A model generated the notes under the pieces. The model made no database searches, was not told where the DNA came from, and was given only the letters and a program-made list of their open reading frames with translations. DNA of 18,949 nucleotides, from assembly GCA_034408725.1 (NCBI GenBank), contig JAWXCN010000109.1:1-18949 (forward strand). The letters are read 5' to 3'. The position numbers were made by a program, and so were the translations under genes. Shown piece by piece: positions 224-12,129 of the stretch; position 1 is the first letter of the stretch; each line of letters starts with the position of its first letter. Source of the DNA: Candidatus Hydrogenedentota bacterium. GTDB taxonomy: Bacteria > Hydrogenedentota > Hydrogenedentia > Hydrogenedentales > SLHB01.

Positions 224-2557
224 ATGTCCAGCGATTCCTATCAAAAGCCTTTGGATGACCCGTGGCCAGTGTCTGGTGACGCGCCTGCGGTTGTCATTCC
301 CGAGGATGAACCTCCAACTAACGTGAGCCCGGCTATGCTTGCCGCGTTGGCGGCCTTTGTTGGCGTGCTCGTATATTTGCTTTTCCACCTCGGGAACGGT
401 TTGGCGTTTGGCCCGTGGCAGGGGGCGTATCTGGATGCAGCGTTCCCCTATCGCGCGCCGTTAATTTCGCTTTGGACCGGGCGCGCGGTGGCGGCAATTC
501 CGTTTGGCGATGCGGCGCGGAGGTTGTCGTTTGCATCCGTGATGTTGGGGGCGCTTGCATGCGCGATGTTGGCGCTGATGGCGGCGCGCGCATTGGGTGC
601 CCGGCCCGGGGGGATTACGGCGGCGTGCGGGGGCGTGGGCGCGGGCTTGCTGTTTGCACTGACGCCGGCGTGGTCCAACGCGGTCGCGAGCAATTCGCCG
701 GCAATGGTAACGGTCCTGCTGTCGCTGATCGGCCTTGCATTTGTTCAGCACGCGATCGAAACACGTACCGCGGGCTGGCTTGCGTATGGAGGATTGGCAA
801 TCGGGTTCGCCACGGCGAATGATCCATCGTTCGCAATACTTTTTGTGATCGCGCTGTTGGCGGCGCTTGGGACGCTGGGCGAGCGTATATCGGTCGCGCG
901 CGTGTTTGCGCCTTTGCTGTGCGGTTTTGCGGCGCCGGTGCTTGTGCCGTTTGCGCGCTCGCTGGTGTTAGGCGAAGGGTTGGACGGTTTTCTAGCGCAC
1001 GCGATGGCGACGGCTTATCCCACGATTGGCGACGGCGTGCCCCGGCTGGGGTTTGGCCTGGAACTCCGCCCGCAATTTTCCTGGGTCATGCTTGGCGCTA
1101 CCCTTGCCGGCATGACGGCCTTGTTTACACCGGGCATGCGCGGCGCCGCAACTACGTGGGCATTGTTGTTCCTGGCGATGGGGCCTTTTTGGCCGATGCT
1201 TACGAACCAACGGAGTTCGGCATACGTCTTACGGGACACGGATGCAGCGACTTCGATTGCAAGCGCGGCGGTGTGCATTGGCGCGGTTTGGGGTTTGGCG
1301 TGGCTGGCGCGAGTTCTTGCGCGGCGGGACCGTGGCGCAACGATCACAGCGTTAATGGCGTGCGGCGTTGCCATTATGGTTGGCGTGCAATACGCCGCGC
1401 TACCCAAGCGGGACGCGGCTCGCGCGGATGCGCTTGCGCGGAGTATTTTTGCGGACTCCGGAACTAACGCGGTAATCGTTACGGGTGACGCGCGAACGAC
1501 TTCGCTGTTGCGGACTATCCAACTTGCGCGCGGCGTGCGACGTGACCTCGCCGTGGTTTCTGTTCATGCGCTCGAACAACCCGAATGGCGCGCTCGGCTC
1601 GCCGCAACGTACCGGGACGAACTGCGCGTCGTCACGGACTTCCCGCCGGACAACGCGTGGACGCGGTGGCCCGTGGAGCGCCCCAACGAGTTCGGTCTGC
1701 TCAACGCCACACTTCGGGACGGCGGGTTGCAGGAAGGCGATTTTCGCGATCTGCTGCTATGGGAATTCATGCGGGACAACTTTTCGGCGCGGCCAATCCT
1801 TTTCGCGGGCGTAACGTCGGCGTGGCTAACCGCGCGCGGCAAGCCCGTGGGGATGCTGTTGGCTTATCCGCGCGAGGGCGCTGGTGAGGGGAATGCGCTG
1901 GCGCTGGTGACAGCCGCTGGCGCGTTCGACACGGACCAGGAGATGGCCGCGACCAACCTGAGTCTGTTGCTACCCCTCGCGGAAGCGAGCAGACGGCAAA
2001 ACGATGTGCCCCAGGCGGAAAAGCTCGCCGCATTGGCGCGCGAAAATGGGCCAAATAACGCGGGCGCGTGGCTTTCCTCGGCACGAGCGGCGGCGCGGGG
2101 CGGCCGGCGCGAGCAGGCGGTGGCGTTTTCGGCGCGCTATCTTCGCATGGCGAACAATCCACGCGAAATGAAAGACTTCTTGGGGCTGATCGAGGAGGAC
2201 TTGCAGCGGAACGCCCTGGCGGTGGAATTCAGCACGGCGGCAATTCAAACCGAGGTGAACGATGCCACGCGCATGCGGCGCGACCAACTTGCGGAAATGC
2301 TTTGGGGACTGGACGAGTTGTCCGTGCTTGCCACGGGCTACGACGTGGCAATGCAAATTGGTCCTGGAGATTTTGAACTACTTTATGAGCGCGCGGCGGT
2401 AAACGCACAACTGGGCGAGCTGGACATCGCGCGCGCATTGGTTGGCGAAGCGGTGAAGGTAGACTTTCAGAAAGTGTGGTCTCGCATGCAATGGGACGGG
2501 CGTTTTTACCTTCTTGAAGTGAAGCGGCCCGAGTTTACTCCCGGGACGCGGGGGTAG
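224..2557 (+). CDS. DUF2723/TMEM260-like multi-pass membrane protein (GT-C-like) with C-terminal TPR-like helical region
   Basis: 777-aa ORF with SD. Many hydrophobic segments in aa ~35-390. 'IPFGDAARRLSFASVMLGALA', 'LLFALTPAWS' and 'NAVIVTGDARTTSLLRTIQLARGVRRDLAVVS' resemble DUF2723-family segments. Ala-rich helical repeats in the C-terminal third. Confidence 0.6.
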   Translation: MSSDSYQKPLDDPWPVSGDAPAVVIPEDEPPTNVSPAMLAALAAFVGVLVYLLFHLGNGLAFGPWQGAYLDAAFPYRAPLISLWTGRAVAAIPFGDAARRLSFASVMLGALACAMLALMAARALGARPGGITAACGGVGAGLLFALTPAWSNAVASNSPAMVTVLLSLIGLAFVQHAIETRTAGWLAYGGLAIGFATANDPSFAILFVIALLAALGTLGERISVARVFAPLLCGFAAPVLVPFARSLVLGEGLDGFLAHAMATAYPTIGDGVPRLGFGLELRPQFSWVMLGATLAGMTALFTPGMRGAATTWALLFLAMGPFWPMLTNQRSSAYVLRDTDAATSIASAAVCIGAVWGLAWLARVLARRDRGATITALMACGVAIMVGVQYAALPKRDAARADALARSIFADSGTNAVIVTGDARTTSLLRTIQLARGVRRDLAVVSVHALEQPEWRARLAATYRDELRVVTDFPPDNAWTRWPVERPNEFGLLNATLRDGGLQEGDFRDLLLWEFMRDNFSARPILFAGVTSAWLTARGKPVGMLLAYPREGAGEGNALALVTAAGAFDTDQEMAATNLSLLLPLAEASRRQNDVPQAEKLAALARENGPNNAGAWLSSARAAARGGRREQAVAFSARYLRMANNPREMKDFLGLIEEDLQRNALAVEFSTAAIQTEVNDATRMRRDQLAEMLWGLDELSVLATGYDVAMQIGPGDFELLYERAAVNAQLGELDIARALVGEAVKVDFQKVWSRMQWDGRFYLLEVKRPEFTPGTRG

Positions 2558-2581: not shown

Positions 2582-4120
2582 ATGCACGAAACCCACGACA
2601 CCACGGTGCGCGCGACGGTGCGGTATGTGGGCGCAGCGTTTGCCGGTTGGCAGGTTCAACCCGCCCAACGCACGGTGCAGGGCGTCATTGAATCCGCACT
2701 GGCCCGGATAGCGGGAAAACCTATACGCGTGCATGGCGCCGGACGCACGGACGCCGGCGTGCATGCCCTCGCGCAGGTCATGTCGTTTCACTGGGATGCC
2801 AGGACGGACCTGGACAAACTCGGCCGGTCGTTGTCCAAAATGCTCGCGCCGGATGTGCTGGTTTCTGAACTCGCGATTGCGCCGCGCGATTTTCATGCGC
2901 GCAAATCCGCGACTGGCAAGGTGTACGCATATACATTCTCGACTGCGCGCGATCCCGATCCGTTTACCGCGCCGTTCGCATGGACGGCCCCGAACGGCGT
3001 GGACCTGGAGCGGTTGCGGAGTTTGTGCGCGCAATTCGAGGGCAAGCTCGATTTCGCGGCGTTCCAGTGCGCGGGGGTCGAGAAAGAATCCACCGTCCGA
3101 ACACTATTTTCCGTCCAGGTGGCCCCCGGCGGCGTAATCGCGCCGTCCGACGCAGCGGGCCTATACCACATCACGTTTCACGGCGACGGATTCCTGTACA
3201 AAATGGTGCGCAACATTACCGGCACTCTCATTGACGTTGCCCGCGGCCATCTGCCCGAATCGCGCATCAATGAGATGCTCGCTTCGCCGGGTCCGTACCG
3301 GGGATTTACCGCCCCCGCGCTGGGTCTAGCGCTGGTGCGCGTCGAGTATGGGGCGCATGCGCCACCGCAGTATTCGCTTCAAAGCGTGCAGCGGTACGAA
3401 TGGGTTTTCGGAGAGAATTTTTTGAGTTCCAGCGGCGCGGACGTCGCCCGCGTTGGCGCTGCGATGTTAAAACTTGCTCCGGGACTGCGGGTGCTTGATG
3501 TTGGAAGCGGATTGGGCGGTGCGGCGTTCCACTTCGCGGAAGCCCACGGCGCGCATGTTACGGGTTTCGATGTGTTGGAAAGCATGACGGTAGAGGCGCG
3601 GGCGCGCGCGGACCGGCGATCATGCGCGCTGGTGGAATTCGAGACGGGCGATGTGCTGGCGGCGCCTATCGCGCCAAACTCGTTCGATGCCGTGTACAGC
3701 AAGGATTCATTTCTGCATATCGCGGACAAGCGCGCGTTGGCGGCGCGCTTGTTTCGAATCCTGAAACCGGGAGGCAGGTTGTTCTTCGCAGATTACCTTC
3801 GCGGGCCGCATACATCCTGCGCGGAATTTGAAGACTATGTTTCGGAATCGGGTTACCATTTGGCCACCGAAATGGAATACCGGGCGTTGCTCGAGGAAAC
3901 GGGGTTTGAAGAAGTCGCCCACGCGAATCTGACCACCGATCTGCGCGCGCTGTTGCTGGCGGATATTGCGCGCATCGAGTCACAGGAGGCCGGCGGGGTG
4001 ATCGGGGGCGCGGACCGGGAGTATCTCGCGGACCGGTGGCGCCTGAAAATCCGGTGTTGCGACGCCAACGCGATGCGGTGGGGTTGGTTCTCCGCGCACA
4101 AGCCAATGGCGGCGAGTTGA
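2582..4120 (+). CDS. truA: tRNA pseudouridine(38-40) synthase TruA fused to a C-terminal class I SAM methyltransferase (phosphoethanolamine N-methyltransferase-like)
   Basis: aa 1-256 carry TruA motifs FAGWQVQ, TVQG, GAGRTDAGVHA (catalytic Asp at 2750-2752), FHAR, GFLYKMVRNITG and TAPALGL..VEY. aa 263-512 carry QY...RYEWVFG, VLDVGSGLGG (SAM motif I), YSKDSFLHI and LKPGGRLFFADY. Confidence 0.9.
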   Translation: MHETHDTTVRATVRYVGAAFAGWQVQPAQRTVQGVIESALARIAGKPIRVHGAGRTDAGVHALAQVMSFHWDARTDLDKLGRSLSKMLAPDVLVSELAIAPRDFHARKSATGKVYAYTFSTARDPDPFTAPFAWTAPNGVDLERLRSLCAQFEGKLDFAAFQCAGVEKESTVRTLFSVQVAPGGVIAPSDAAGLYHITFHGDGFLYKMVRNITGTLIDVARGHLPESRINEMLASPGPYRGFTAPALGLALVRVEYGAHAPPQYSLQSVQRYEWVFGENFLSSSGADVARVGAAMLKLAPGLRVLDVGSGLGGAAFHFAEAHGAHVTGFDVLESMTVEARARADRRSCALVEFETGDVLAAPIAPNSFDAVYSKDSFLHIADKRALAARLFRILKPGGRLFFADYLRGPHTSCAEFEDYVSESGYHLATEMEYRALLEETGFEEVAHANLTTDLRALLLADIARIESQEAGGVIGGADREYLADRWRLKIRCCDANAMRWGWFSAHKPMAAS

Positions 4121-4241
4121 GACGGTGAATGGAGGCGAGGGGATGTACCCCGTGATCGATTGATTCCGGCCGCGGCACAATTTAGACTGGCCTGAATCAA
4201 TCCCCGGCCCCAACCGGCATTGCGCGATGCGCGGAGGACCC

Positions 4242-4790
4242 ATGAGCAAAGTACTTGTACCCCTTGCAGATGGCTTGGAAGAAATCGAAGCAATTACGAT
4301 CATCGATCTGCTACGGCGCGCGGAAATTGACGTCGTCACCGCATCCTTGACCGGTGACACCGTGAAAGGAAGTCACGGCATCGTCATTACCGCTGACACA
4401 ACCCTCGACGTCGCCTTGAATAGCGACTATGACATGGTCGTACTGCCCGGCGGCATGCCCGGCGCCGAGCACCTCGACCAGGACAAGCGCGTGCACGCGT
4501 TGCTGCACAAGATGGCCGACAGCGGGAAATTCACCGGCGCGATCTGTGCCGCGCCGAAAGTGCTCGCAAACGCCGGCCTCCTCAATGGCAAGAAGGCAAC
4601 GAGTTACCCCGGGTTTGTCGACAAAATGAACCTGCCCGGCGTGACTTACACCGGCGCTCCCGTGCAATGCGACGGTAAAATCATCACTGGACGCGGCCCT
4701 GGCGCGGCAATGGACTTTACCCTGTCATTGATCGAAGCGCTCGACGGCAAAGAAAAACGCAATAGCGTCGAGAAAGCCCTCATGCGATAG
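4242..4790 (+). CDS. yajL: DJ-1/PfpI family protein (YajL/ThiJ-type glyoxalase III/deglycase)
   Basis: Motifs LADGLEEIEA (catalytic Glu), VVLPGGMPGA, GAICAAP (nucleophile Cys) and ITGRGPG. Start moved to ATG 4242, which follows GGAGG at 4233-4237. Confidence 0.9.
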   Translation: MSKVLVPLADGLEEIEAITIIDLLRRAEIDVVTASLTGDTVKGSHGIVITADTTLDVALNSDYDMVVLPGGMPGAEHLDQDKRVHALLHKMADSGKFTGAICAAPKVLANAGLLNGKKATSYPGFVDKMNLPGVTYTGAPVQCDGKIITGRGPGAAMDFTLSLIEALDGKEKRNSVEKALMR

Positions 4791-4873: not shown

Positions 4874-5338
4874 ATGCCAAAATCAAAATCACACGTCCCC
4901 GACGGCTTCCAGGCTGTCGTCCCTTATTTTCACCTCGACGGCGCGGCCCGCTTCCTCGAATTTCTCACGAAAGCATTCGGCGCGGAGGAAACCTTTCGCT
5001 CGCTTACGCCAGACGGCAAGATCATGCACGCAACCGCCCGCATCGGCAACGCAGTCCTCGAAGTGTCTGACGCCACTGCCCAATGGCACGCGATGCCCTG
5101 CGCGATCCATCTCTATCTCCCGGACACGGATGCCGCATACAAAAACGCGCTGAGCGCCGGCGCAACCTCGCTCTACGAACCGACAGACATGTTTTACGGC
5201 GAACGCTCCGGCGGCATCACCGATCCCTTCGGCAACAAATGGTACATTGCCACGCACGTCGAAGACATTCCCGAAGAAGAGATGGAAGAGCGCGCGCAAG
5301 CATACGCAAAAAAACAATCACAGCAACAACAACAATGA
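4874..5338 (+). CDS. VOC (glyoxalase/bleomycin resistance) family protein, PhnB-like
   Basis: Motifs FLTKAFGAEE, DGKIMHA, DMFYGERSGGITDPFGNKWYIATH. Purine-rich SD-like GAGGAAAAG upstream. Confidence 0.9.
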   Translation: MPKSKSHVPDGFQAVVPYFHLDGAARFLEFLTKAFGAEETFRSLTPDGKIMHATARIGNAVLEVSDATAQWHAMPCAIHLYLPDTDAAYKNALSAGATSLYEPTDMFYGERSGGITDPFGNKWYIATHVEDIPEEEMEERAQAYAKKQSQQQQQ

Positions 5339-5400
5339 ACACGAGCACAGAATGTGCCTTTCATCGTTTCCGTGCTCGTCTGTGTTTGTCCGTGTTCATC
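5335..5400. repeat. Small intergenic palindromic element with 10-nt periodic units
   Basis: ATGAACACG (5335-5343) pairs with CGTGTTCAT (5391-5399). ACGAGCAC (5341-5348) pairs with GTGCTCGT (5372-5379). Three tandem decamers TCCGTGCTCG/TCTGTGTTTG/TCCGTGTTCA at 5369-5398. Confidence 0.55.
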
Positions 5401-5416
5401 CAGAAGAATTTATAAT
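5386..5416 (+). promoter_or_regulatory. Putative sigma70 promoter for the TIM-barrel gene
   Basis: Perfect TATAAT at 5411-5416. TTGTCC at 5386-5391 gives a suboptimal 19-nt spacer. SD AGGAG at 5432-5436. Confidence 0.35.
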
Positions 5417-5442
5417 CGCGCCCAAGTGCGCAGGAGACCATA

Positions 5443-6297
5443 ATGTTTTATTCAGGCATCTCCGACGAAGCTGGCAAATCCATCGACACCCAGATCGCCG
5501 CGCATCGCGACCTTGGATGGGACCAATTGGAACTGCGGCTCGTCAACGGCACGAACTTTACCTCCGTGTCCGATGAACTCTCTTGCGAAGTCTACGAAAA
5601 ACTTTCGTCCGAAGGCATGAAAGTTTCCTGCTTCGGCAGCGCGATCGCAAATTGGGCGCGCCCCATCACCTGCGACGCGAATATCGACATCGATGATCTC
5701 GCCCGCGCCATTCCACGTATGCACCGGTTCGGCACGCCATTCATCCGCGTGATGAGTTATCCAAACGATCCCAAGTCACCCATCTCCGAACCCGAATGGC
5801 GCGCTGAAGCCATCAAACGCATAAGAACGCTCGCCAAAATGGCCGAAGACGGCGGCATCATCCTCTGCCACGAGAACTGCAGCGGATGGGGCGGCCTTTC
5901 CGCGGACCACAGCAACATCCTCCTCGGAGAAGTCAACAGCCCCGCGCTTAAAGTAGTGTTCGACACCGGCAACCCGGTCACCTACGGACAAAACTCCTGG
6001 GACTACTATCAGAGCGTGTATAACGACATCGCTTACGTTCATATCAAGGACGCCAAAAAAATCAATGGCGAAGACCAGTACACCTATTGCGGCGAAGGTG
6101 ATGGCAACGTCCCCGAAATTGTGGCCGATCTACTTGCCAGGGGTTACGACGGCGGCTTCTCCATCGAACCCCATCTCGCCGCGATCATCCACACCGGTCA
6201 AAACGCGGACAGCGACGCCGCGCTCTACGATTCGTACACGGAATACGGGCGGCGCTTCATGAAAATCGTCGAGCAAGCGCAAGCGCATAGCGCATAA
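5443..6297 (+). CDS. Sugar phosphate isomerase/epimerase family protein (xylose isomerase-like/AP_endonuc_2 TIM barrel)
   Basis: Metal-ligand motifs CHENC, VFDTGN, VHIKD and SIEPH. N-terminal SGISDEA. Good SD. Confidence 0.88.
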   Translation: MFYSGISDEAGKSIDTQIAAHRDLGWDQLELRLVNGTNFTSVSDELSCEVYEKLSSEGMKVSCFGSAIANWARPITCDANIDIDDLARAIPRMHRFGTPFIRVMSYPNDPKSPISEPEWRAEAIKRIRTLAKMAEDGGIILCHENCSGWGGLSADHSNILLGEVNSPALKVVFDTGNPVTYGQNSWDYYQSVYNDIAYVHIKDAKKINGEDQYTYCGEGDGNVPEIVADLLARGYDGGFSIEPHLAAIIHTGQNADSDAALYDSYTEYGRRFMKIVEQAQAHSA

Positions 6298-6315
6298 AAA
6301 AAGGGAGGCGGCATT

Positions 6316-6489
6316 ATGGCAGTCATGCGATGGACCAAGATTCGCACGTTCTTCGGAGTAGTATTTGCTATCGTCGTACTCGTCGGGTTCGTGGCCATCG
6401 CCGCCGCGCTCTTTAACGTCCGACTTCCCATTCTCGGCGAGATCACCGACGCCGTGGCATCCGCCCGGGAGAATAATCCGATTGAATAA
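6316..6489 (+). CDS. Small (57 aa) single-pass membrane protein, not in the ORF track
   Basis: SD AAGGGAGG (6301-6308), ATG 6316, TAA 6487-6489. Translation MAVMRWTKIRTFFGVVFAIVVLVGFVAIAAALFNVRLPILGEITDAVASARENNPIE has a basic N-terminus and one ~22-aa hydrophobic helix. Lies 18 nt after the upstream stop. Confidence 0.65.
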   Translation: MAVMRWTKIRTFFGVVFAIVVLVGFVAIAAALFNVRLPILGEITDAVASARENNPIE

Positions 6490-6584
6490 GGAGAAGAAGG
6501 TCGACGAGCGCGCTTGTCGTTGTATCCCAAAACATCATTCCCGCGAGCGCCGAATAGCAGAATAGAAATAGTTAATTTTCCATC

Positions 6585-6941
6585 TCACTCTTTTTTGTCA
6601 TTCTTAATCGGCACGCGCAACAATGTGAACAAATTGATGTAGATGTTGGCGATCCACACCAGCGCAAACCCCGCTACCATGTACCCTGCCAATTGCGATA
6701 CAGCATCTGGAAAACGCGTAACAAACAGCACGAAGACCACGATATAGTGGCTAAAACAGTATGGGCATGTGAATAGGTAAAGAAACTTTCGCCCTACCAA
6801 GGTCCTCGCAGCCGCGCTTCGACGTTCGCACCACTCGCGGAACTCTTTGAACAGCTATTCATTCGTTACGGTCCAACTGACTGACGCAACCGGGACCGCC
6901 AAAATCAGCAGCCAACCAATCTGTGAACCGAGTGATAACAC
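6585..6941 (-). pseudogene. Interrupted small membrane protein with CxxC motif (FTCPYCFSHY; DUF1360-like), in-frame TAG at codon 29
   Basis: Frame from GTG 6941 reads MLSLGSQIGWLLILAVPVASVSWTVTNE*LFKEFREWCERRS...RKFLYLFTCPYCFSHY, continuous with the 6585..6800 ORF except for the TAG at 6855-6857. Start codon uncertain. Confidence 0.65.
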
Positions 6942-7030
6942 CTTGATACCGTGACCTAATATTCTGCAAGAAGTCGCCAGACAATGGACTGCCCGTCTGT
7001 CAGGCTATGGATGAATGACGGCCGCTCCGT

Positions 7031-7235
7031 TTAGCGCCTACGATACGCGGGCGGCCGTTTATCGAGGACTACTATTTTGAAATCCGTCTTGGACAGGGCT
7101 TAGGCAAGTAAAGCGCCTGTAATGCCACTGCCGATAATCACTATGTTGCACTGGATATCTTTGGTAAGTTTCCGATATTGGGGGGGGCACGTTTCCCATT
7201 TAGCCAAATAGACTCGCCGGAATGTAAATTTTCAC
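7031..7235 (-). pseudogene. Remnant N-terminus of an FAD-dependent oxidoreductase (DAO/PuuB-like Rossmann fold)
   Basis: Minus strand reads NLHSGESIWLNGKRAPP, then a frameshift in the G8 run (7180-7187), then YRKLTKDIQCNIVIIGSGITGALLA*ALSKTDFKIVVLDKR. GxGxxG at 7115-7132, in-frame TAA at 7100-7102, truncated near 7031. Confidence 0.75.
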
Positions 7236-7262
7236 TTGACAGATAGCTCGCTAAATCCCGGT

Positions 7263-8609
7263 TCAATTCGACGATCTCGTTTCTTCCGATGCCGCGGAAA
7301 AAGGTGCCGCGGTTGGCGCGACCAGGGTGAATCGAAAACCTTGGTCTGGAGCACTATCCAATTCGCTATAACCTCCCAGTAAGTGTAGACGCTCTTGCGT
7401 CGTAAATAGACCGAGCCCTCCCGTCTGATCAGTGGGTTTCAACGCAGGCGTGGTGGAAACGTCAAAGCCGATACCCTCATCTGAAACCATTATTCTAATT
7501 TCATTGCCGTGTTGGCCCACGTCAATTTTTGCGGTGTCTACGCCGGAATGCTTGACGACATTGAAGAGCAGTTCGCGAACACTTTGGAAAAGCAGAATGG
7601 TCAAGTCCTCACGGTACATTGAAATTTGCCCGTTTACGGAGAGTGACACGTCGAGTTTGTGTTTTTCCTTCATCCAGCGGCAAAGCCACTCCAATGCCGG
7701 AATGAGACCTCCTTTACGGAGTATCGGAGGGCTAATCTCGCCCGTAAGGGTCCGTGATATACCGATGCATTCGGAAATCAGACCTCGTACTTCTTCCGCC
7801 AACTCCGCTATCGGTTCGCCGGAGGCGCCCCTGAGCATTTCCGCGCGAAGTTTCGCGGCAACCAGCAATTGTTGCAAAGTATCGTGAAGCGTCAGCGCCA
7901 ACTTCTCGCGCTCCCGCTGCTCCGCCAGTGTAAGCTCTCCCGCAAGGCGTTGAACCTGTATCGTGCGCTCGCGCAGCCGGTTTTCCAGTTGCTCGCGATT
8001 CCGAATTTCTTCTTTTAACCGGTCAACCGTCTTGCTCAGCTCAATGGTGCGTTCGGTAACCCTGCCTTCCAGCGTGCTGTTGACGCGATGTAGCGCATCT
8101 TCGGCCTGCTTGCGCGCGGTGATGTCCGTAAAACACCACACCCGCCCGACGTTCTGGCCATTGACGTATTGGATTCGCGAGTATCGTTCTATGGTTCTTC
8201 CGTCCGTGAGTTCCATCAAATCATAGGTTTCTTCCGGCAAGGTTGCATGAATGGAATTCAGTTTGACTTTGTGATGTTCCGGCAACCCCAGCCGTTCGGT
8301 AATGGATTCCAGCAGCGCTGTATGCGAGATTGATTCCAATTCCTCTGCGCGGAATCCCCACATTTGAATGTAATTCTGGTTGTAACCCGTGACCTTCCAG
8401 TCCCGATTCGTCACCAGAATCGCATCCGTCGTAGACTCAAGCGTTGCGCGCACCATGGCGAGCGAATGATCCAATTCCTTCGTCTTTCGCTCGAGTTCAA
8501 CATTCGCCTGAAGGAGGTCCTCTTCCGCGCGCAGCCGCGCCTGAAGGATGCTGTTGGCGTTCTGCAATGCCGCGGAACGAAGAAGTTTCTCTTCATCTTC
8601 GATATTCAT
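7263..8609 (-). CDS. Cytoplasmic PAS-domain sensor histidine kinase (HisKA_3/NarX-like + HATPase_c)
   Basis: PAS/PAC (ATLESTTDAILV...GRVWCFTDITARKQAE), coiled coil, H-box EREKLALTLHDTLQQLL (His at 7884-7886), N-box ELLFNVVKHSG, G1 DEGIGFD, G2 GGLGL. No transmembrane segment. Confidence 0.92.
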   Translation of the reverse strand: MNIEDEEKLLRSAALQNANSILQARLRAEEDLLQANVELERKTKELDHSLAMVRATLESTTDAILVTNRDWKVTGYNQNYIQMWGFRAEELESISHTALLESITERLGLPEHHKVKLNSIHATLPEETYDLMELTDGRTIERYSRIQYVNGQNVGRVWCFTDITARKQAEDALHRVNSTLEGRVTERTIELSKTVDRLKEEIRNREQLENRLRERTIQVQRLAGELTLAEQREREKLALTLHDTLQQLLVAAKLRAEMLRGASGEPIAELAEEVRGLISECIGISRTLTGEISPPILRKGGLIPALEWLCRWMKEKHKLDVSLSVNGQISMYREDLTILLFQSVRELLFNVVKHSGVDTAKIDVGQHGNEIRIMVSDEGIGFDVSTTPALKPTDQTGGLGLFTTQERLHLLGGYSELDSAPDQGFRFTLVAPTAAPFSAASEETRSSN

Positions 8610-9671
8610 TCACGCGACTCCAAGCGCTTCTGACGCAAGCTCCGTACCGCGGACGCGCGCTCGAATTTTGCCAAAAGCAGTCTCTCGCGTGGTCGATGTA
8701 TCGTCGCAAAACGGAGAAAATCCGCAATCGTCGGTGGTGCCCAACTGATTGACCGGGATAAATTCTGCCGCTTCTAATGTCCTGTCCCGGATTTCCTCGG
8801 CCGTTTCCATCCTCGGATCAATTGGCGAGACCACCCCGACGTACACGCGTTGATACGGCTTTAGGTAGTCGCGAATAATCTTGAGGACGTGCCGCCGATC
8901 TTTCTCGCCCGCGAGGGCGACGTAAAAATTACCGACTTTCAACGCGAACAGACTCGGCAGGAGTTCGGAATAGTCCACTTCCGCGCTATGCGTAGAGTCG
9001 CGATCCCCGCCGGGGCACGTATGAACCCCGATGCGCTGGCGTTCCTGGTCAGAAAATTGCCCGAGGGCGAGATTGTTCAGGTCGATAAAACTATTCAGCA
9101 GCCGGCCCGACGGATCCAGTTTCACCGCCAAACGGCCTTCAGTAAAGTCGATCTGCACTTTGTGCGCGCCTTTATCAAGGCACCTCCTGATTTCCCCCAC
9201 ATGTTCGCCGAGTAAATCCTGAATGAATGCTTCACGCGGATACCCCGGGATTTCATGAGCCGGGTACATCAAACTTAAGGCTGAGGGAGAAATTACGGCC
9301 TGCTTCACGGGAACGCTGGCATACCGAAACGCAACGTCAAGATAACTGTCCGCATAGTTCTTGTACTGGAATGGGCCGGCGGTAAGCTGAGGCATTCGCC
9401 GGACGTGGCCGGCCGCGAATGGAATCTGGAATCCGTCCGGAGTGGTATTTGGCAGCCCTTCCACGCTATATGTCCAAAAATTGTGGTATTTTCGTTGTTC
9501 ACCGTCGGTGATCACGGGTGATCCCGTCGCTTCGAACTGCCCGATTGTGTCCCGAATCGCATCCTCAAACATGCTGTCGAGGTGCGCACCGACCCCGCCG
9601 CTCTCTTCGAGTGCGCGGATCAGCGCGAGGGGCCTTGGAATGCTTCCGATAGGTTCAGTTGGGATAGGCAT
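8610..9671 (-). CDS. Cobalamin-independent methionine synthase II (Meth_synt_2)-like single-barrel Zn-thiol protein
   Basis: Motifs PIGSIPRP, ITDGEQRK, VQIDF, Zn ligands GVHTCPG (9015-9023) and TTDDCGFSP (Cys 8724-8726), METAEEIRDR. About half the length of MetE and lacks the folate-binding barrel. Start is ATG 9671 or GTG 9686. Confidence 0.85.
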   Translation of the reverse strand: MPIPTEPIGSIPRPLALIRALEESGGVGAHLDSMFEDAIRDTIGQFEATGSPVITDGEQRKYHNFWTYSVEGLPNTTPDGFQIPFAAGHVRRMPQLTAGPFQYKNYADSYLDVAFRYASVPVKQAVISPSALSLMYPAHEIPGYPREAFIQDLLGEHVGEIRRCLDKGAHKVQIDFTEGRLAVKLDPSGRLLNSFIDLNNLALGQFSDQERQRIGVHTCPGGDRDSTHSAEVDYSELLPSLFALKVGNFYVALAGEKDRRHVLKIIRDYLKPYQRVYVGVVSPIDPRMETAEEIRDRTLEAAEFIPVNQLGTTDDCGFSPFCDDTSTTRETAFGKIRARVRGTELASEALGVA

Positions 9672-9942: not shown

Positions 9943-12129
9943 ATGAAGAAGCTGCGCGGGAAGAAGATTGGGGTCAAGGCTGTCCCTGAAAGTGCGAAAA
10001 TCAAAGAACTTGAGGCCGACAAAGAGCTTGGTGACGGGCAGATATTGACTACAAACCATGGAGTGGGCATCAGCGATAACCAAAACTCCCTGAAGGCGCA
10101 TGAACGCGGTAGCACGCTGATGGAAGATTTTATCCTTCGGGAAAAGATCACCCATTTTGATCACGAGCGCATTCCAGAGCGAATCGTTCATGCTCGCGGG
10201 TCAGCCGCGCATGGATTTTTTCAGGTCTACGAATCCATGCAGAAATACACAAAGGCAAACTTTCTTCAGGACCCTTCCGTGAAGACACCTGTTTTTGTCC
10301 GGTTTTCGACCGTTGCTGGCTCCCGAGGCTCGACCGACCTCGCGCGCGACGTCCGGGGTTTTTCCGTGAAGTTTTACACCGCCGAAGGGAATTACGATTT
10401 CGTGGGAAATAACGTTCCGGTCTTTTTCATCCAGGATGCCATGAAATTTCCTGACTTCGTACATGCAGTGAAGCCTGAACCTCACAATGAAATGCCGCAG
10501 GCAGCGTCGGCCCATGACACTTTTTGGGATTTCATTTCCCTGGTTCCAGAATCCATGCACATGATTATGTGGGTCATGTCAGACCGTGCCATCCCGCGAA
10601 GCTACCGGATGATGGAAGGATTCGGCGTGCACACCTTCCGGTTAATTAACCAAAAAGGTAGTTCTCATTTCGTAAAATTCCATTGGAAGCCGTTGCTGGG
10701 TGTCCACTCTGTTCTATGGGACGAGGCGCTTAAGATTTCGGGTAAAGATCCTGACTTTCACCGGCGTGACTTGTGGGAAGCCATCGAGAATGGCGATTTT
10801 CCGGAATGGGAATTGGGCGTACAGATCGTGCGCGAGGAAGACGAGCATAAGTTTGAGTTCGACTTGCTCGACCCGACCAAAATCATTCCGGAAGAAGTAG
10901 TTCCTGTAAAGCGGATCGGGAAGATGACCCTCAATCGCAATCCCGACAATTTCTTCGCGGAAACGGAGCAGGTAGCTTTTCATCCGGGTCATTTAGTGCC
11001 GGGAATCGACTTTACGAACGATCCGCTGCTGCAAGGCAGGCTGTTTTCCTATACCGACACCCAACTGTCCCGGCTAGGCAGTCCTAACTTCCACGAAATC
11101 CCGATTAACCGGCCGGTATGCCCCGTTCACAACAATCAGCGCGACGGTCACATGCGCCAAACAATCAACCGAGGGCGCGTAAGCTACGAACCCAACACAC
11201 TGGGCGGTGGATGTCCCATGCAGTTGAGCGCGGAAAACGGGGGGTTTTCGAGCTTCCCCGAAAGAGTTGACGGTTCCAAAGTTCGTGACAGAAGCCGAAG
11301 TTTCTTTGACCATTTCAGCCAGGCCGCTCTATTTTATGACAGCCAGTCAGAACCCGAACAGATGCATATTATGAAGGCGCTTCGCTTTGAATTGGGTAAA
11401 GTTGAAACGCAATCCATTCAGGAGCGCATGTTGTTCCTGCTCTCCCGAATCGACAAAAGGCTTGCGGATGACGTCGGCGCCGGAATCGGAGTAAAAGTTC
11501 CTTCAAGCATTGCCGAGCCTCTTAATCAGAGTGTTCCCGCGGACATTCCTGTGAAGGATTACCAACCCTTACCAATACGGAAATCCAACCAAAAATCCGC
11601 GGCGCTAAGTATGGCGAATACAATCTTTAGCGCGAAGACACGCAAAATTGCTGTCCTCGTTGCTGATGGATTCGATGATGTCTCGCTGTCGGCAATGGTT
11701 AAAGCCCTCAAGTCAGAAGGCATTCAAACGAAGATTGTCGCTCCGCACGGCGGCTTCATTGAAGGCATGCGTGGCGGCAAAATCAGAGTGGATTTCAGCT
11801 TTGCAACGATTGGCTCAGTACTTTTTGACGGCGCCTGCATTCCCGGTGGTCAGAAAAGTGTTAAGACGCTTCTTAAATTACCGGAAGCGGTCCTGTTCGT
11901 GAACGAAACATATAAGCATTGCAAGGCCGTTGCCGCATTGGGTGATGGAGCGGAAATTATTCAAGGGGTGCCATGGGGAATCGGAAAGGACTTCGAAGGC
12001 AAAGACAAGGAAGACGGTGTCGTAATCAGCCGGAAAGGCAATGTGAAAACCGTGGCAAGCGGTTTCGTTGCTGCAATCGCGAAACACCGTCACTGGAAAA
12101 GAGAAGCGACCGATAACATTCCCGTGTAA
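9943..12129 (+). CDS. katE: Large-subunit monofunctional heme catalase HPII
   Basis: Distal His motif [32 protein letters not shown], proximal Tyr motif [12 protein letters not shown]-terminal DJ-1/GATase-like domain ([10 protein letters not shown]...YKHCKAV). SD AAGGAG at 9931-9936. Confidence 0.97.

Follow-up and report, generated by a model that had tools for sequence, protein, structure and literature searches.

We analyzed a window of 18,949 nucleotides (nt) from a Candidatus Hydrogenedentota bacterium (the whole of the stretch taken from the contig JAWXCN010000109.1, assembly GCA_034408725.1), in which the tRNA pseudouridine synthase TruA and a domain of the phosphoethanolamine N-methyltransferase (PMT) family are encoded by a single open reading frame (ORF). 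This architecture had been proposed in a first-pass annotation of the DNA, and ORF prediction, Pfam, TIGR00071, and the solved PMT structures recovered every element of it at the positions in Table 1. Downstream of the linker, the ORF translation runs through QYSLQSVQRYEWVFGENFLSSSG, VLDVGSGLGG, YSKDSFLHI, FADY, EDYVSESGYHL, and WRLK in this order. The same annotation had described a junction with neither a stop codon nor an in-frame Met, and this holds: the next Met, residue 295, comes only after the catalytic Tyr264 of the methyltransferase half. The Pfam search of the fused protein returned PseudoU_synth_1 (PF01416) in two stretches (114.4 bits) together with Methyltransf_25, Methyltransf_11, and Methyltransf_31 (64-70 bits).

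Table 1. The fused gene, its parts, and genes in its surroundings (positions in the window; SAM, S-adenosylmethionine).
Feature	Position	Strand	Basis or remark
Whole fused ORF	2582..4120	+	ATG start; 512 aa and stop; uninterrupted
TruA domain, residues 1-256, ending in ...LVRVEY	2582..3349	+	TIGR00071; match to E. coli TruA; Foldseek
Six-residue linker GAHAPP	3350..3367	+	Stands in place of the stop/start overlap and the leader of stand-alone methyltransferases
PMT-family class I SAM-dependent N-methyltransferase domain, residues 263-512	3368..4117	+	Pfam; matches to solved PMTs; Foldseek
SAM-binding glycine-rich motif VLDVGSGLGG, residues 304-313	3491..3520	+	Inside the Methyltransf_25 match (residues 304-398); conserved in the methyltransferase alignment
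Codon of Ser423, aligned with Arg179 of Plasmodium PMT (RGY to SGY)	3848..3850	+	PMT alignments
777-aa membrane/TPR protein with weak PMT_2 and TPR matches	224-2557		Upstream; 24 nt before the start of the fused ORF
DJ-1/PfpI gene	4227-4790		Just downstream of the fusion
Large-subunit catalase with a C-terminal DJ-1/PfpI-like domain	9943-12129		Downstream

The TruA half scored 165.8 bits against the TruA equivalog model TIGR00071, over the curated cut-off of 142.85 bits, and matched E. coli TruA (2nqp/1dj0) with an E-value of 2.2e-28. Asp57 (nt 2750-2752), found in the motif GRTDAGVHA, was aligned with Asp60 of E. coli TruA (2nqp), which we take to be the catalytic residue, and its column was invariant in 35 TruA sequences. 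When an AlphaFold2 model of the fused protein was compared with 1dj0_A by Foldseek, the TM-score (normalized by the target) was 0.87 and the root-mean-square deviation (rmsd) was 1.9 over 257 columns. The half shares with the TruA proteins of E. coli and Thermus (1dj0, 2nqp, and 1vs3) the two PseudoU_synth_1 halves, the catalytic Asp in GRTDAGVH, the fold (TM-score by the target, 0.87-0.88), and the presence as a single copy in the genome. In contrast to these proteins, the fused TruA stops at ...VEY and has no C-terminal tail, the second enzyme following directly. The fused gene is the sole truA that we found in its own genome, which is a metagenome-assembled genome of 5.17 Mb in 280 contigs with a completeness of 92% (designated G000 below). 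The N-terminal half is thus predicted to be the only TruA of the cell and should form pseudouridine at tRNA positions 38-40.

The methyltransferase half was matched over the full length by the second domain of Arabidopsis PMT1 (E = 1.5e-53) and by the PMTs of Plasmodium vivax (1.3e-37), Caenorhabditis elegans (PMT-2; 7.6e-36), and Plasmodium falciparum (1.9e-34). Altogether, residues 7-251 of the 256-residue methyltransferase query were aligned to 11 solved PMT sequences with E-values of 2.7e-33 or lower. The best structure outside the PMT family, MitM, was matched at 2.8e-19 and covered only a part of the domain. Foldseek comparisons between the AlphaFold2 model and the Plasmodium PMTs gave TM-scores (by the target) of 0.86-0.89 with an rmsd of 2.2-2.4. 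Glycine, sarcosine, and dimethylglycine N-methyltransferases, which participate in glycine betaine synthesis, are also class I SAM-dependent enzymes with a trimethylammonium product and are distant kin of the fused domain. The assignment of the domain to the sarcosine/dimethylglycine type was rejected, as the model NF041675 scored 59.9 bits against a cut-off of 550; likewise, the glycine-betaine-type entry 2o57 was matched at 2.6e-8, in contrast to 1e-53 for PMTs.

Residues of the methyltransferase half are compared below using the numbering given by the alignment to P. vivax PMT. Asp128, which we presume to be catalytic in PMT (the structure of the D128A mutant was listed among the Foldseek matches), is retained as Asp375. 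The catalytic residues Tyr19 and His132 are retained as Tyr264 and His379, and the phosphobase pocket is retained as Tyr272 (Tyr27), Tyr405 (Tyr160), Tyr419 (Tyr175), Tyr425 (Tyr181), and Lys489 (Lys247), the roles of these residues being those given in PMC6705855. The first-pass annotation had recognized both this pattern of catalytic Tyr, Asp, and His and the replacement of the Arg in "RGY" by Ser, and the alignments to the solved PMTs bear out both. Arg179, the electrostatic ligand of the phosphate, is not kept and is Ser423 in the fused protein; in all five solved-PMT alignments that were printed the position is occupied by Arg (RGY, RKY, or RAY versus SGY). As both folds are intact and the key residues are conserved, both halves look active.

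The likeness to the PMTs of Plasmodium (PfPMT, 3uj6-3ujd; PvPMT, 4mwz), plants (the second domain of AtPMT1/2, 5wp4/5wp5), and nematodes (PMT-2, 4ine/4krh) thus comprises full-length homology (1.5e-53 to 2.7e-33), the fold, the N-terminal lid motif QY...RYE.(V/I)FG, the SAM motif, the Tyr19/His132 pair, Asp128, the tyrosine cage, and Lys247. The fused methyltransferase departs from them in having Ser in place of Arg179, in its bacterial host, and in its location behind TruA, whose fold ends seven residues ahead of the catalytic Tyr. It also differs in that the host genome yielded no kinase gene and no genes of the CDP-choline pathway, and in that its activity is a prediction.

Ser at position 179 is not private to the fusion, as both the split orthologues described below and other bacterial orthologues carry it. 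Among the orthologues of Hydrogenedentota, Ser was found in G000, G001, G002, G003, and G020, while G028 and G032 bear Thr and Asn, respectively. Outside the phylum, Ser is present in Desulfohalobiaceae, one Desulfobacterales genome, and two loci of Myxococcota, while Arg is present in Anaerolineales, Poribacteria, and one gammaproteobacterial locus.

The first-pass annotation had considered two separate genes in relatives and an error in the reads at the junction as signs against the fusion. The former part proved to be correct for the two congeners G001 and G002 (see below), but no indel was found at the junction. The Logan contig of the run X2 covers positions 3166-3594 with 0 differences and 0 gaps and that of the run X3 covers positions 3280-3700 with one other letter and 0 gaps, so that both cross positions 3340-3375 intact. 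A contig of the run X1 also bridges this region free of indels but may represent the source sample, and the run X4 provided no contig over positions 3312-3374. The four runs are all metagenomes of microbial mats dating from a single year and hence may stem from the same campaign. The same fusion was detected in the congener G003, in which the ORF contains no stop, is cut by a contig end only, and has the six-residue linker DTPTPA. A JGI protein of 506 aa, P0004, matches the G003 sequence exactly along its 438 residues and provides the N-terminus that G003 lacks. Between G000 and G003, the fused proteins share 71% identity over TruA and 59% over the methyltransferase, and the presence of the fusion at such divergence with an equal linker length rules out a slip in assembly. 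The fusion is genuine and inherited. One more sequence, P0005 (359 aa, from an ENA contig of 3990 bases), comprises TruA, an 11-residue linker, and the beginning of a methyltransferase whose reading frame is repeatedly lost and regained; it could represent either a third relative with the fusion or a split pair assembled with many indels, and we did not count it as a fusion.

In G001 and G002, truA and the methyltransferase gene are arranged in the same order as separate genes, which overlap by 8 nt in different frames. The truA genes end in ...VLYA-stop, and the ATG of the methyltransferase lies within ...T ATG CGT GA and ...T ATG CCT AA, respectively. The NCBI model of the G001 methyltransferase (P0126) begins at this overlapping ATG. 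The overlap suggests that the two genes were translationally coupled before the fusion. The stand-alone methyltransferases of both congeners bear N-terminal leaders of 10-12 residues, which are absent in the fused genes. The Gln-Tyr at which the methyltransferase fold opens follows the final Tyr codon of TruA after 34 nt (G001) or 28 nt (G002) in the split pairs, versus 18 nt in G000 and G003. The TruA and methyltransferase of G001 are 67% and 50% identical to the corresponding halves of the fused protein, respectively, and those of G002 are 60% and 50% identical; Ser179 is common to the fused protein and both pairs. In the fourth congener, G004, truA (71% identical) is followed by ftsY, and no trace of the methyltransferase was found nearby.

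We subjected 20 of the 32 tabulated methyltransferase sequences (16 of the canonical type and four as the outgroup) to a maximum-likelihood analysis, excluding 12 sequences that were divergent or partial (L026, L026b, L034, L037, L039, L041, L044, L049, L053, L055, L067, and L070). G000 and G003 appeared as sisters with a Shimodaira-Hasegawa-like approximate likelihood ratio test (SH-aLRT) support of 97 and were placed within a clade with G001, G002, and G020 (SH-aLRT of 99). The simplest reading of the tree is that a single fusion event would have taken place before G000 and G003 diverged from each other. The fusion derives from an overlapping gene pair. The ancestor of the genus would have possessed truA and the methyltransferase gene head to tail with the 8-nt overlap (...TAT GCN TGA/TAA read as ATG...). 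We infer that a deletion with a length of 1 modulo 3 (net 16 or 10 nt relative to the split genes of today) joined the two frames; it would have taken out the stop codon of truA and the short leader of the methyltransferase, and both halves would have remained under selection afterward. The architecture is a new combination of two known families, and the mechanism behind it is an ordinary one. A chance fusion was among the three options of the first-pass annotation, and it alone fits the comparative data, in a refined form: a stop/start overlap of 8 nt, as is still seen in G001 and G002, would have collapsed.

The methyltransferase was detected in 11 of the 135 genomes of the phylum (E ≤ 1e-30). 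It is fused to TruA in two of them (G000 and G003) and overlaps truA in two (G001 and G002). The remaining seven (G020, G028, G032, G051, G102, G103, and G120) contribute nine copies in all, and no truA was found in their fetched flanks, which span 0.8 to ~6 kb and are in part cut by contig ends. G102 (C106 and C386) and G103 (C276 and C70), two species of one genus, each possess two PMT-like copies. A pattern scan across phyla, with one genome per species, found at least 527 relatives and at least 599 stretches, of which we kept 80 loci; 24 of these were full-length (more than 225 of 256 residues matched). A truA gene lies within 6 kb of the methyltransferase in only one of these 24 loci, which is G003 itself, and in none of the 23 loci from other phyla.

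When the whole fusion was used as the query, P0004 and P0005 were the only proteins spanned in both halves among the best 120 of 546 matches. Among the best 150 of 45,131 matches in a library of 1.84 billion representatives, none had a score and length fitting TruA plus a methyltransferase, although the query's own cluster was not listed, which weakens this negative; the top match there was a double methyltransferase (P0243, 264.9 bits). The closest stand-alone methyltransferases, P0123 and P0126, carry the NCBI names Candidatus Hydrogenedentota/Hydrogenedentes. Full-length bacterial relatives of the PMT family with intact catalytic residues were found in at least seven phyla.

All-against-all BLAST comparison of the flanking regions identified no neighbor shared by the eight Hydrogenedentota loci besides truA within the genus, and no neighbor shared by the canonical-type methyltransferases among the 27 loci across phyla. 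The genes immediately next to the orthologues vary, encoding an FG-GAP protein, GH95, EAL, an acyl-ACP desaturase, a ceramidase-like protein, a PMT_2 glycosyltransferase, FtsY, and RmlD. The desaturase gene (6980-8005 of L017, a locus of G032) ends one base ahead of the PMT-like gene (8006-8833). The gene adjoining the PMT-like gene of G120 (L119:5736-7319) is neutral/alkaline ceramidase-like; phosphoethanolamine might be supplied, among other ways, by the breakdown of sphingolipids. The link between truA and the methyltransferase is confined to one genus, which comprises four of the 11 carriers in the phylum. The functional link between tRNA modification and phosphocholine/betaine synthesis that the first-pass annotation had envisaged is not upheld by this distribution, with four of 11 carriers linked to truA in the phylum and none of 23 loci elsewhere.

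The rest of the window downstream of the fusion encodes, besides the genes in Table 1, a glyoxalase-fold protein, a xylose-isomerase-like TIM barrel, a PAS histidine kinase, a MetE-like protein, and, further downstream, a PSCyt1/PSCyt2/PSD1 protein with its DUF1501 partner and a GH94 enzyme. The catalase and DJ-1/PfpI genes are ordinary oxidative-stress genes, and the nearby genes bear on neither the TruA nor the methyltransferase activity. Two apparent recurrences of neighbors were rejected: the upstream 777-aa protein is dissimilar to the PMT_2 protein beside the G103 copy (best E = 7), and the similarity of the xylose-isomerase-like protein to one beside L027 (22% identity, E = 0.018) is at the level of chance. 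Searches of the window for Rfam families and tRNAs gave no matches. The window includes a stretch of ~730 bases (6530-7263) that contains no ORF of 80 aa or longer, has no Rfam or tRNA match, and falls in the part with the lowest GC content (0.495 for 6501-7500).

We favor, with reasonable though far from complete confidence, a joint reading in which the fused gene arose from a translationally coupled pair, its two halves have independent activities, and the methyltransferase adds methyl groups to the nitrogen of a small molecule resembling phosphoethanolamine. The C-terminal half would methylate the amino group of such a compound by means of Tyr264/His379 and the tyrosine/lysine pocket, and the most likely substrate would be phosphoethanolamine en route to phosphocholine. 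A clue to the substrate came from the Desulfohalobiaceae locus L023, in which a choline/ethanolamine kinase gene (5082-5984; PF01633, 90.9 bits) overlaps the start of a Ser179-type methyltransferase gene (5950-6789). As the product of this kinase is a phosphomonoester, the locus hints at a phosphoethanolamine-like substrate for the Ser179 type. The substrate of the fused methyltransferase is probably phosphoethanolamine-like. As to the neighborhood of L023, a gene of the MtmB (monomethylamine methyltransferase-like) family lies a few kb upstream (L023:979-2535), as is also the case in L031 (2140-3522).

Several observations weigh against this reading. Arg179, one of the two charged ligands of the phosphate, is Ser in the fused methyltransferase, and the substrate may thus be other than free phosphoethanolamine. 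The kinase neighbor was found in a single locus (L023), and a choline/ethanolamine kinase scored over the cut-off in none of the 41 genomes (G000 and 40 relatives). The 92%-complete genome of G000 yielded no match to LicD, BetA, or BCCT; five genes for CDP-alcohol phosphatidyltransferases are present in this genome, in which we recognized no supply of phosphoethanolamine and no use for phosphocholine. Furthermore, the pair is coupled or fused in four of the five species of the genus, and its retention may reflect some functional or stoichiometric benefit. Finally, we found no assayed enzyme of this bacterial clade in the literature (here and below, the main texts of open-access papers and preprints).

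A second reading, which we regard as possible but clearly less probable, retains the origin of the fusion and the independence of the halves but assigns to the methyltransferase an amine other than free phosphoethanolamine. This amine could be 2-aminoethylphosphonate or an ethanolamine phosphodiester, namely glycerophosphoethanolamine, CDP-ethanolamine, or a lipid or glycan decorated with phosphoethanolamine. Ser in place of the bulky, charged Arg179 would fit a less charged or bulkier head group, and all seven tabulated Hydrogenedentota orthologues have Ser, Thr, or Asn at this position, while Arg is kept in three other bacterial lineages. The lack of a detected phosphoethanolamine-supplying kinase in G000 agrees with this reading as well.

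The phosphonate candidate draws on a second bacterial subfamily of PMT-like proteins (L026, L029, L030, L034, L036, L037, and L038), which possess Ser27, Tyr132, Phe160, and Cys, Thr, Ser, or Ala at position 179. We clustered the genes flanking these loci by ORF similarity and annotated one representative per cluster. A cluster represented by a phosphoenolpyruvate (PEP) mutase fused to a nucleotidyltransferase was found in L030, L034, and L036; one represented by a thiamine pyrophosphate (TPP) decarboxylase-like protein in L029, L030, L034, L036, and L041; and one represented by a class-V aminotransferase in L029, L030, and L036. Such a combination of PEP mutase, TPP decarboxylase-like protein, and aminotransferase corresponds to the 2-aminoethylphosphonate pathway, and the methyltransferases of these loci are candidate N-methyltransferases of 2-aminoethylphosphonate. 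In L029, L030, L034, L036, and L041, of which the last is more divergent, the methyltransferase gene is located at about 6001-6750. L026, a locus of Streptomyces, contains PMT-like genes in tandem (5059-5808 and 6001-6735) with differing pocket residues. The arrangement recalls nematodes, in which the methylation steps are split between PMT-1 and PMT-2. A protein of 434 aa, P0131, also connects a PMT-like domain (with Arg179) to phosphonates, as the domain lies behind an HD domain that JGI annotates as "phosphonate degradation associated HDIG domain protein"; in P0318 (434 aa) the methyltransferase is positioned likewise.

The fused methyltransferase is not a member of this subfamily, as it bears the canonical Tyr27, His132, and Tyr160 instead of Ser, Tyr, and Phe, and this speaks against 2-aminoethylphosphonate as its substrate. 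Its own genome also contains no true PEP mutase, the best match scoring 148.9 bits against a cut-off of 319.55; such sub-threshold matches occur likewise in the genomes without the methyltransferase. Of the 41 relatives, G032 alone possesses a true PEP mutase (C361:2154-2984, 393.6 bits), the gene for which is located 41 kb from the PMT-like gene on the same contig. In addition, the kinase ahead of the Ser179-type orthologue in L023 is at odds with a substrate other than a phosphomonoester.

Selection for the fusion through a stoichiometric or regulatory coupling is a further, rather doubtful option: TruA and the methyltransferase would share no substrate but would be synthesized in equal amounts, or the level of the methyltransferase would be tied to the growth rate. 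Translational coupling is already implied by the overlapping genes of G001 and G002 (8 nt), and the fusion has been kept across ~30-40% amino-acid divergence. Nevertheless, these patterns are indistinguishable from neutral retention, and G004 lacks the methyltransferase while G020 carries it elsewhere in the genome.

We regard as quite improbable that the tethered methyltransferase acts on the pseudouridine made by TruA at positions 38-40 or on a nearby nucleotide of the anticodon arm, the coupled modification that had been put forward in the first-pass annotation. The support for this idea consists of the gene order and fusion in one genus and the short tether, in which seven residues separate the TruA fold from Tyr264. 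Against it, the orthologues are not beside truA in seven other genomes of the phylum and 23 loci of other phyla, and truA is present in all 41 relatives but the methyltransferase in just seven of them. The residues of the pocket for small molecules are conserved, and the methyltransferase half is acidic (isoelectric point of 5.6; 26 Lys and Arg versus 34 Asp and Glu), unlike the RNA-binding TruA half (isoelectric point of 8.9). The AlphaFold2 model of the whole protein (mean predicted local distance difference test [pLDDT] of 89.9; predicted TM-score of 0.66) shows two confident domains, and pLDDT falls below 50 solely at residues 259-268 and 278-281, where the two halves join and the methyltransferase begins. 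The low confidence there suggests that the two domains have no fixed mutual orientation, although it may partly stem from the input alignment, in which ~55 N-terminal residues of the methyltransferase-only rows were misplaced into the TruA half. If the coupling were true, the protein would be the first class I, phosphobase-derived pseudouridine/tRNA methyltransferase and a single machine for a two-step modification, and the split coupled pairs of the congeners would build the same complex non-covalently.

The least credible reading, that an indel in sequencing or assembly joined two overlapping genes, is largely refuted: a single-base error could fuse overlapping genes in different frames in a metagenome-assembled genome of 280 contigs, and P0005 resembles such a frame-broken sequence, but the contigs of X2 and X3 agree across the junction, G003/P0004 are fused with the same linker length at 59-71% identity, and the loss of the 10-12-residue leader is beyond a point error.

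The fusion presented here is a clean, datable case of an overlapping stop/start pair collapsing into a bifunctional gene. As such a fusion is an ordinary event, the fusion alone is no sign of a functional link between TruA and the methyltransferase. The more useful outcome is a bacterial PMT family with two branches, namely the Ser179 branch, once found beside a choline/ethanolamine kinase, and the branch associated with 2-aminoethylphosphonate gene clusters. In the portions of PMC4805780 and PMC4357015 that concern its distribution, the PMT family is described as confined to plants, nematodes, and Plasmodium. Our literature search found no TruA-methyltransferase fusion, no bacterial PMT, and no PMT-type aminoethylphosphonate methyltransferase. 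If the bacterial PMT-like enzymes are active, they would provide bacteria with a phosphobase-methylation route to phosphocholine and possibly also with a route to N-methyl-aminophosphonates, both undescribed in the papers searched. We consider the wider occurrence of PMT-family enzymes in bacteria to be the part worth pursuing.

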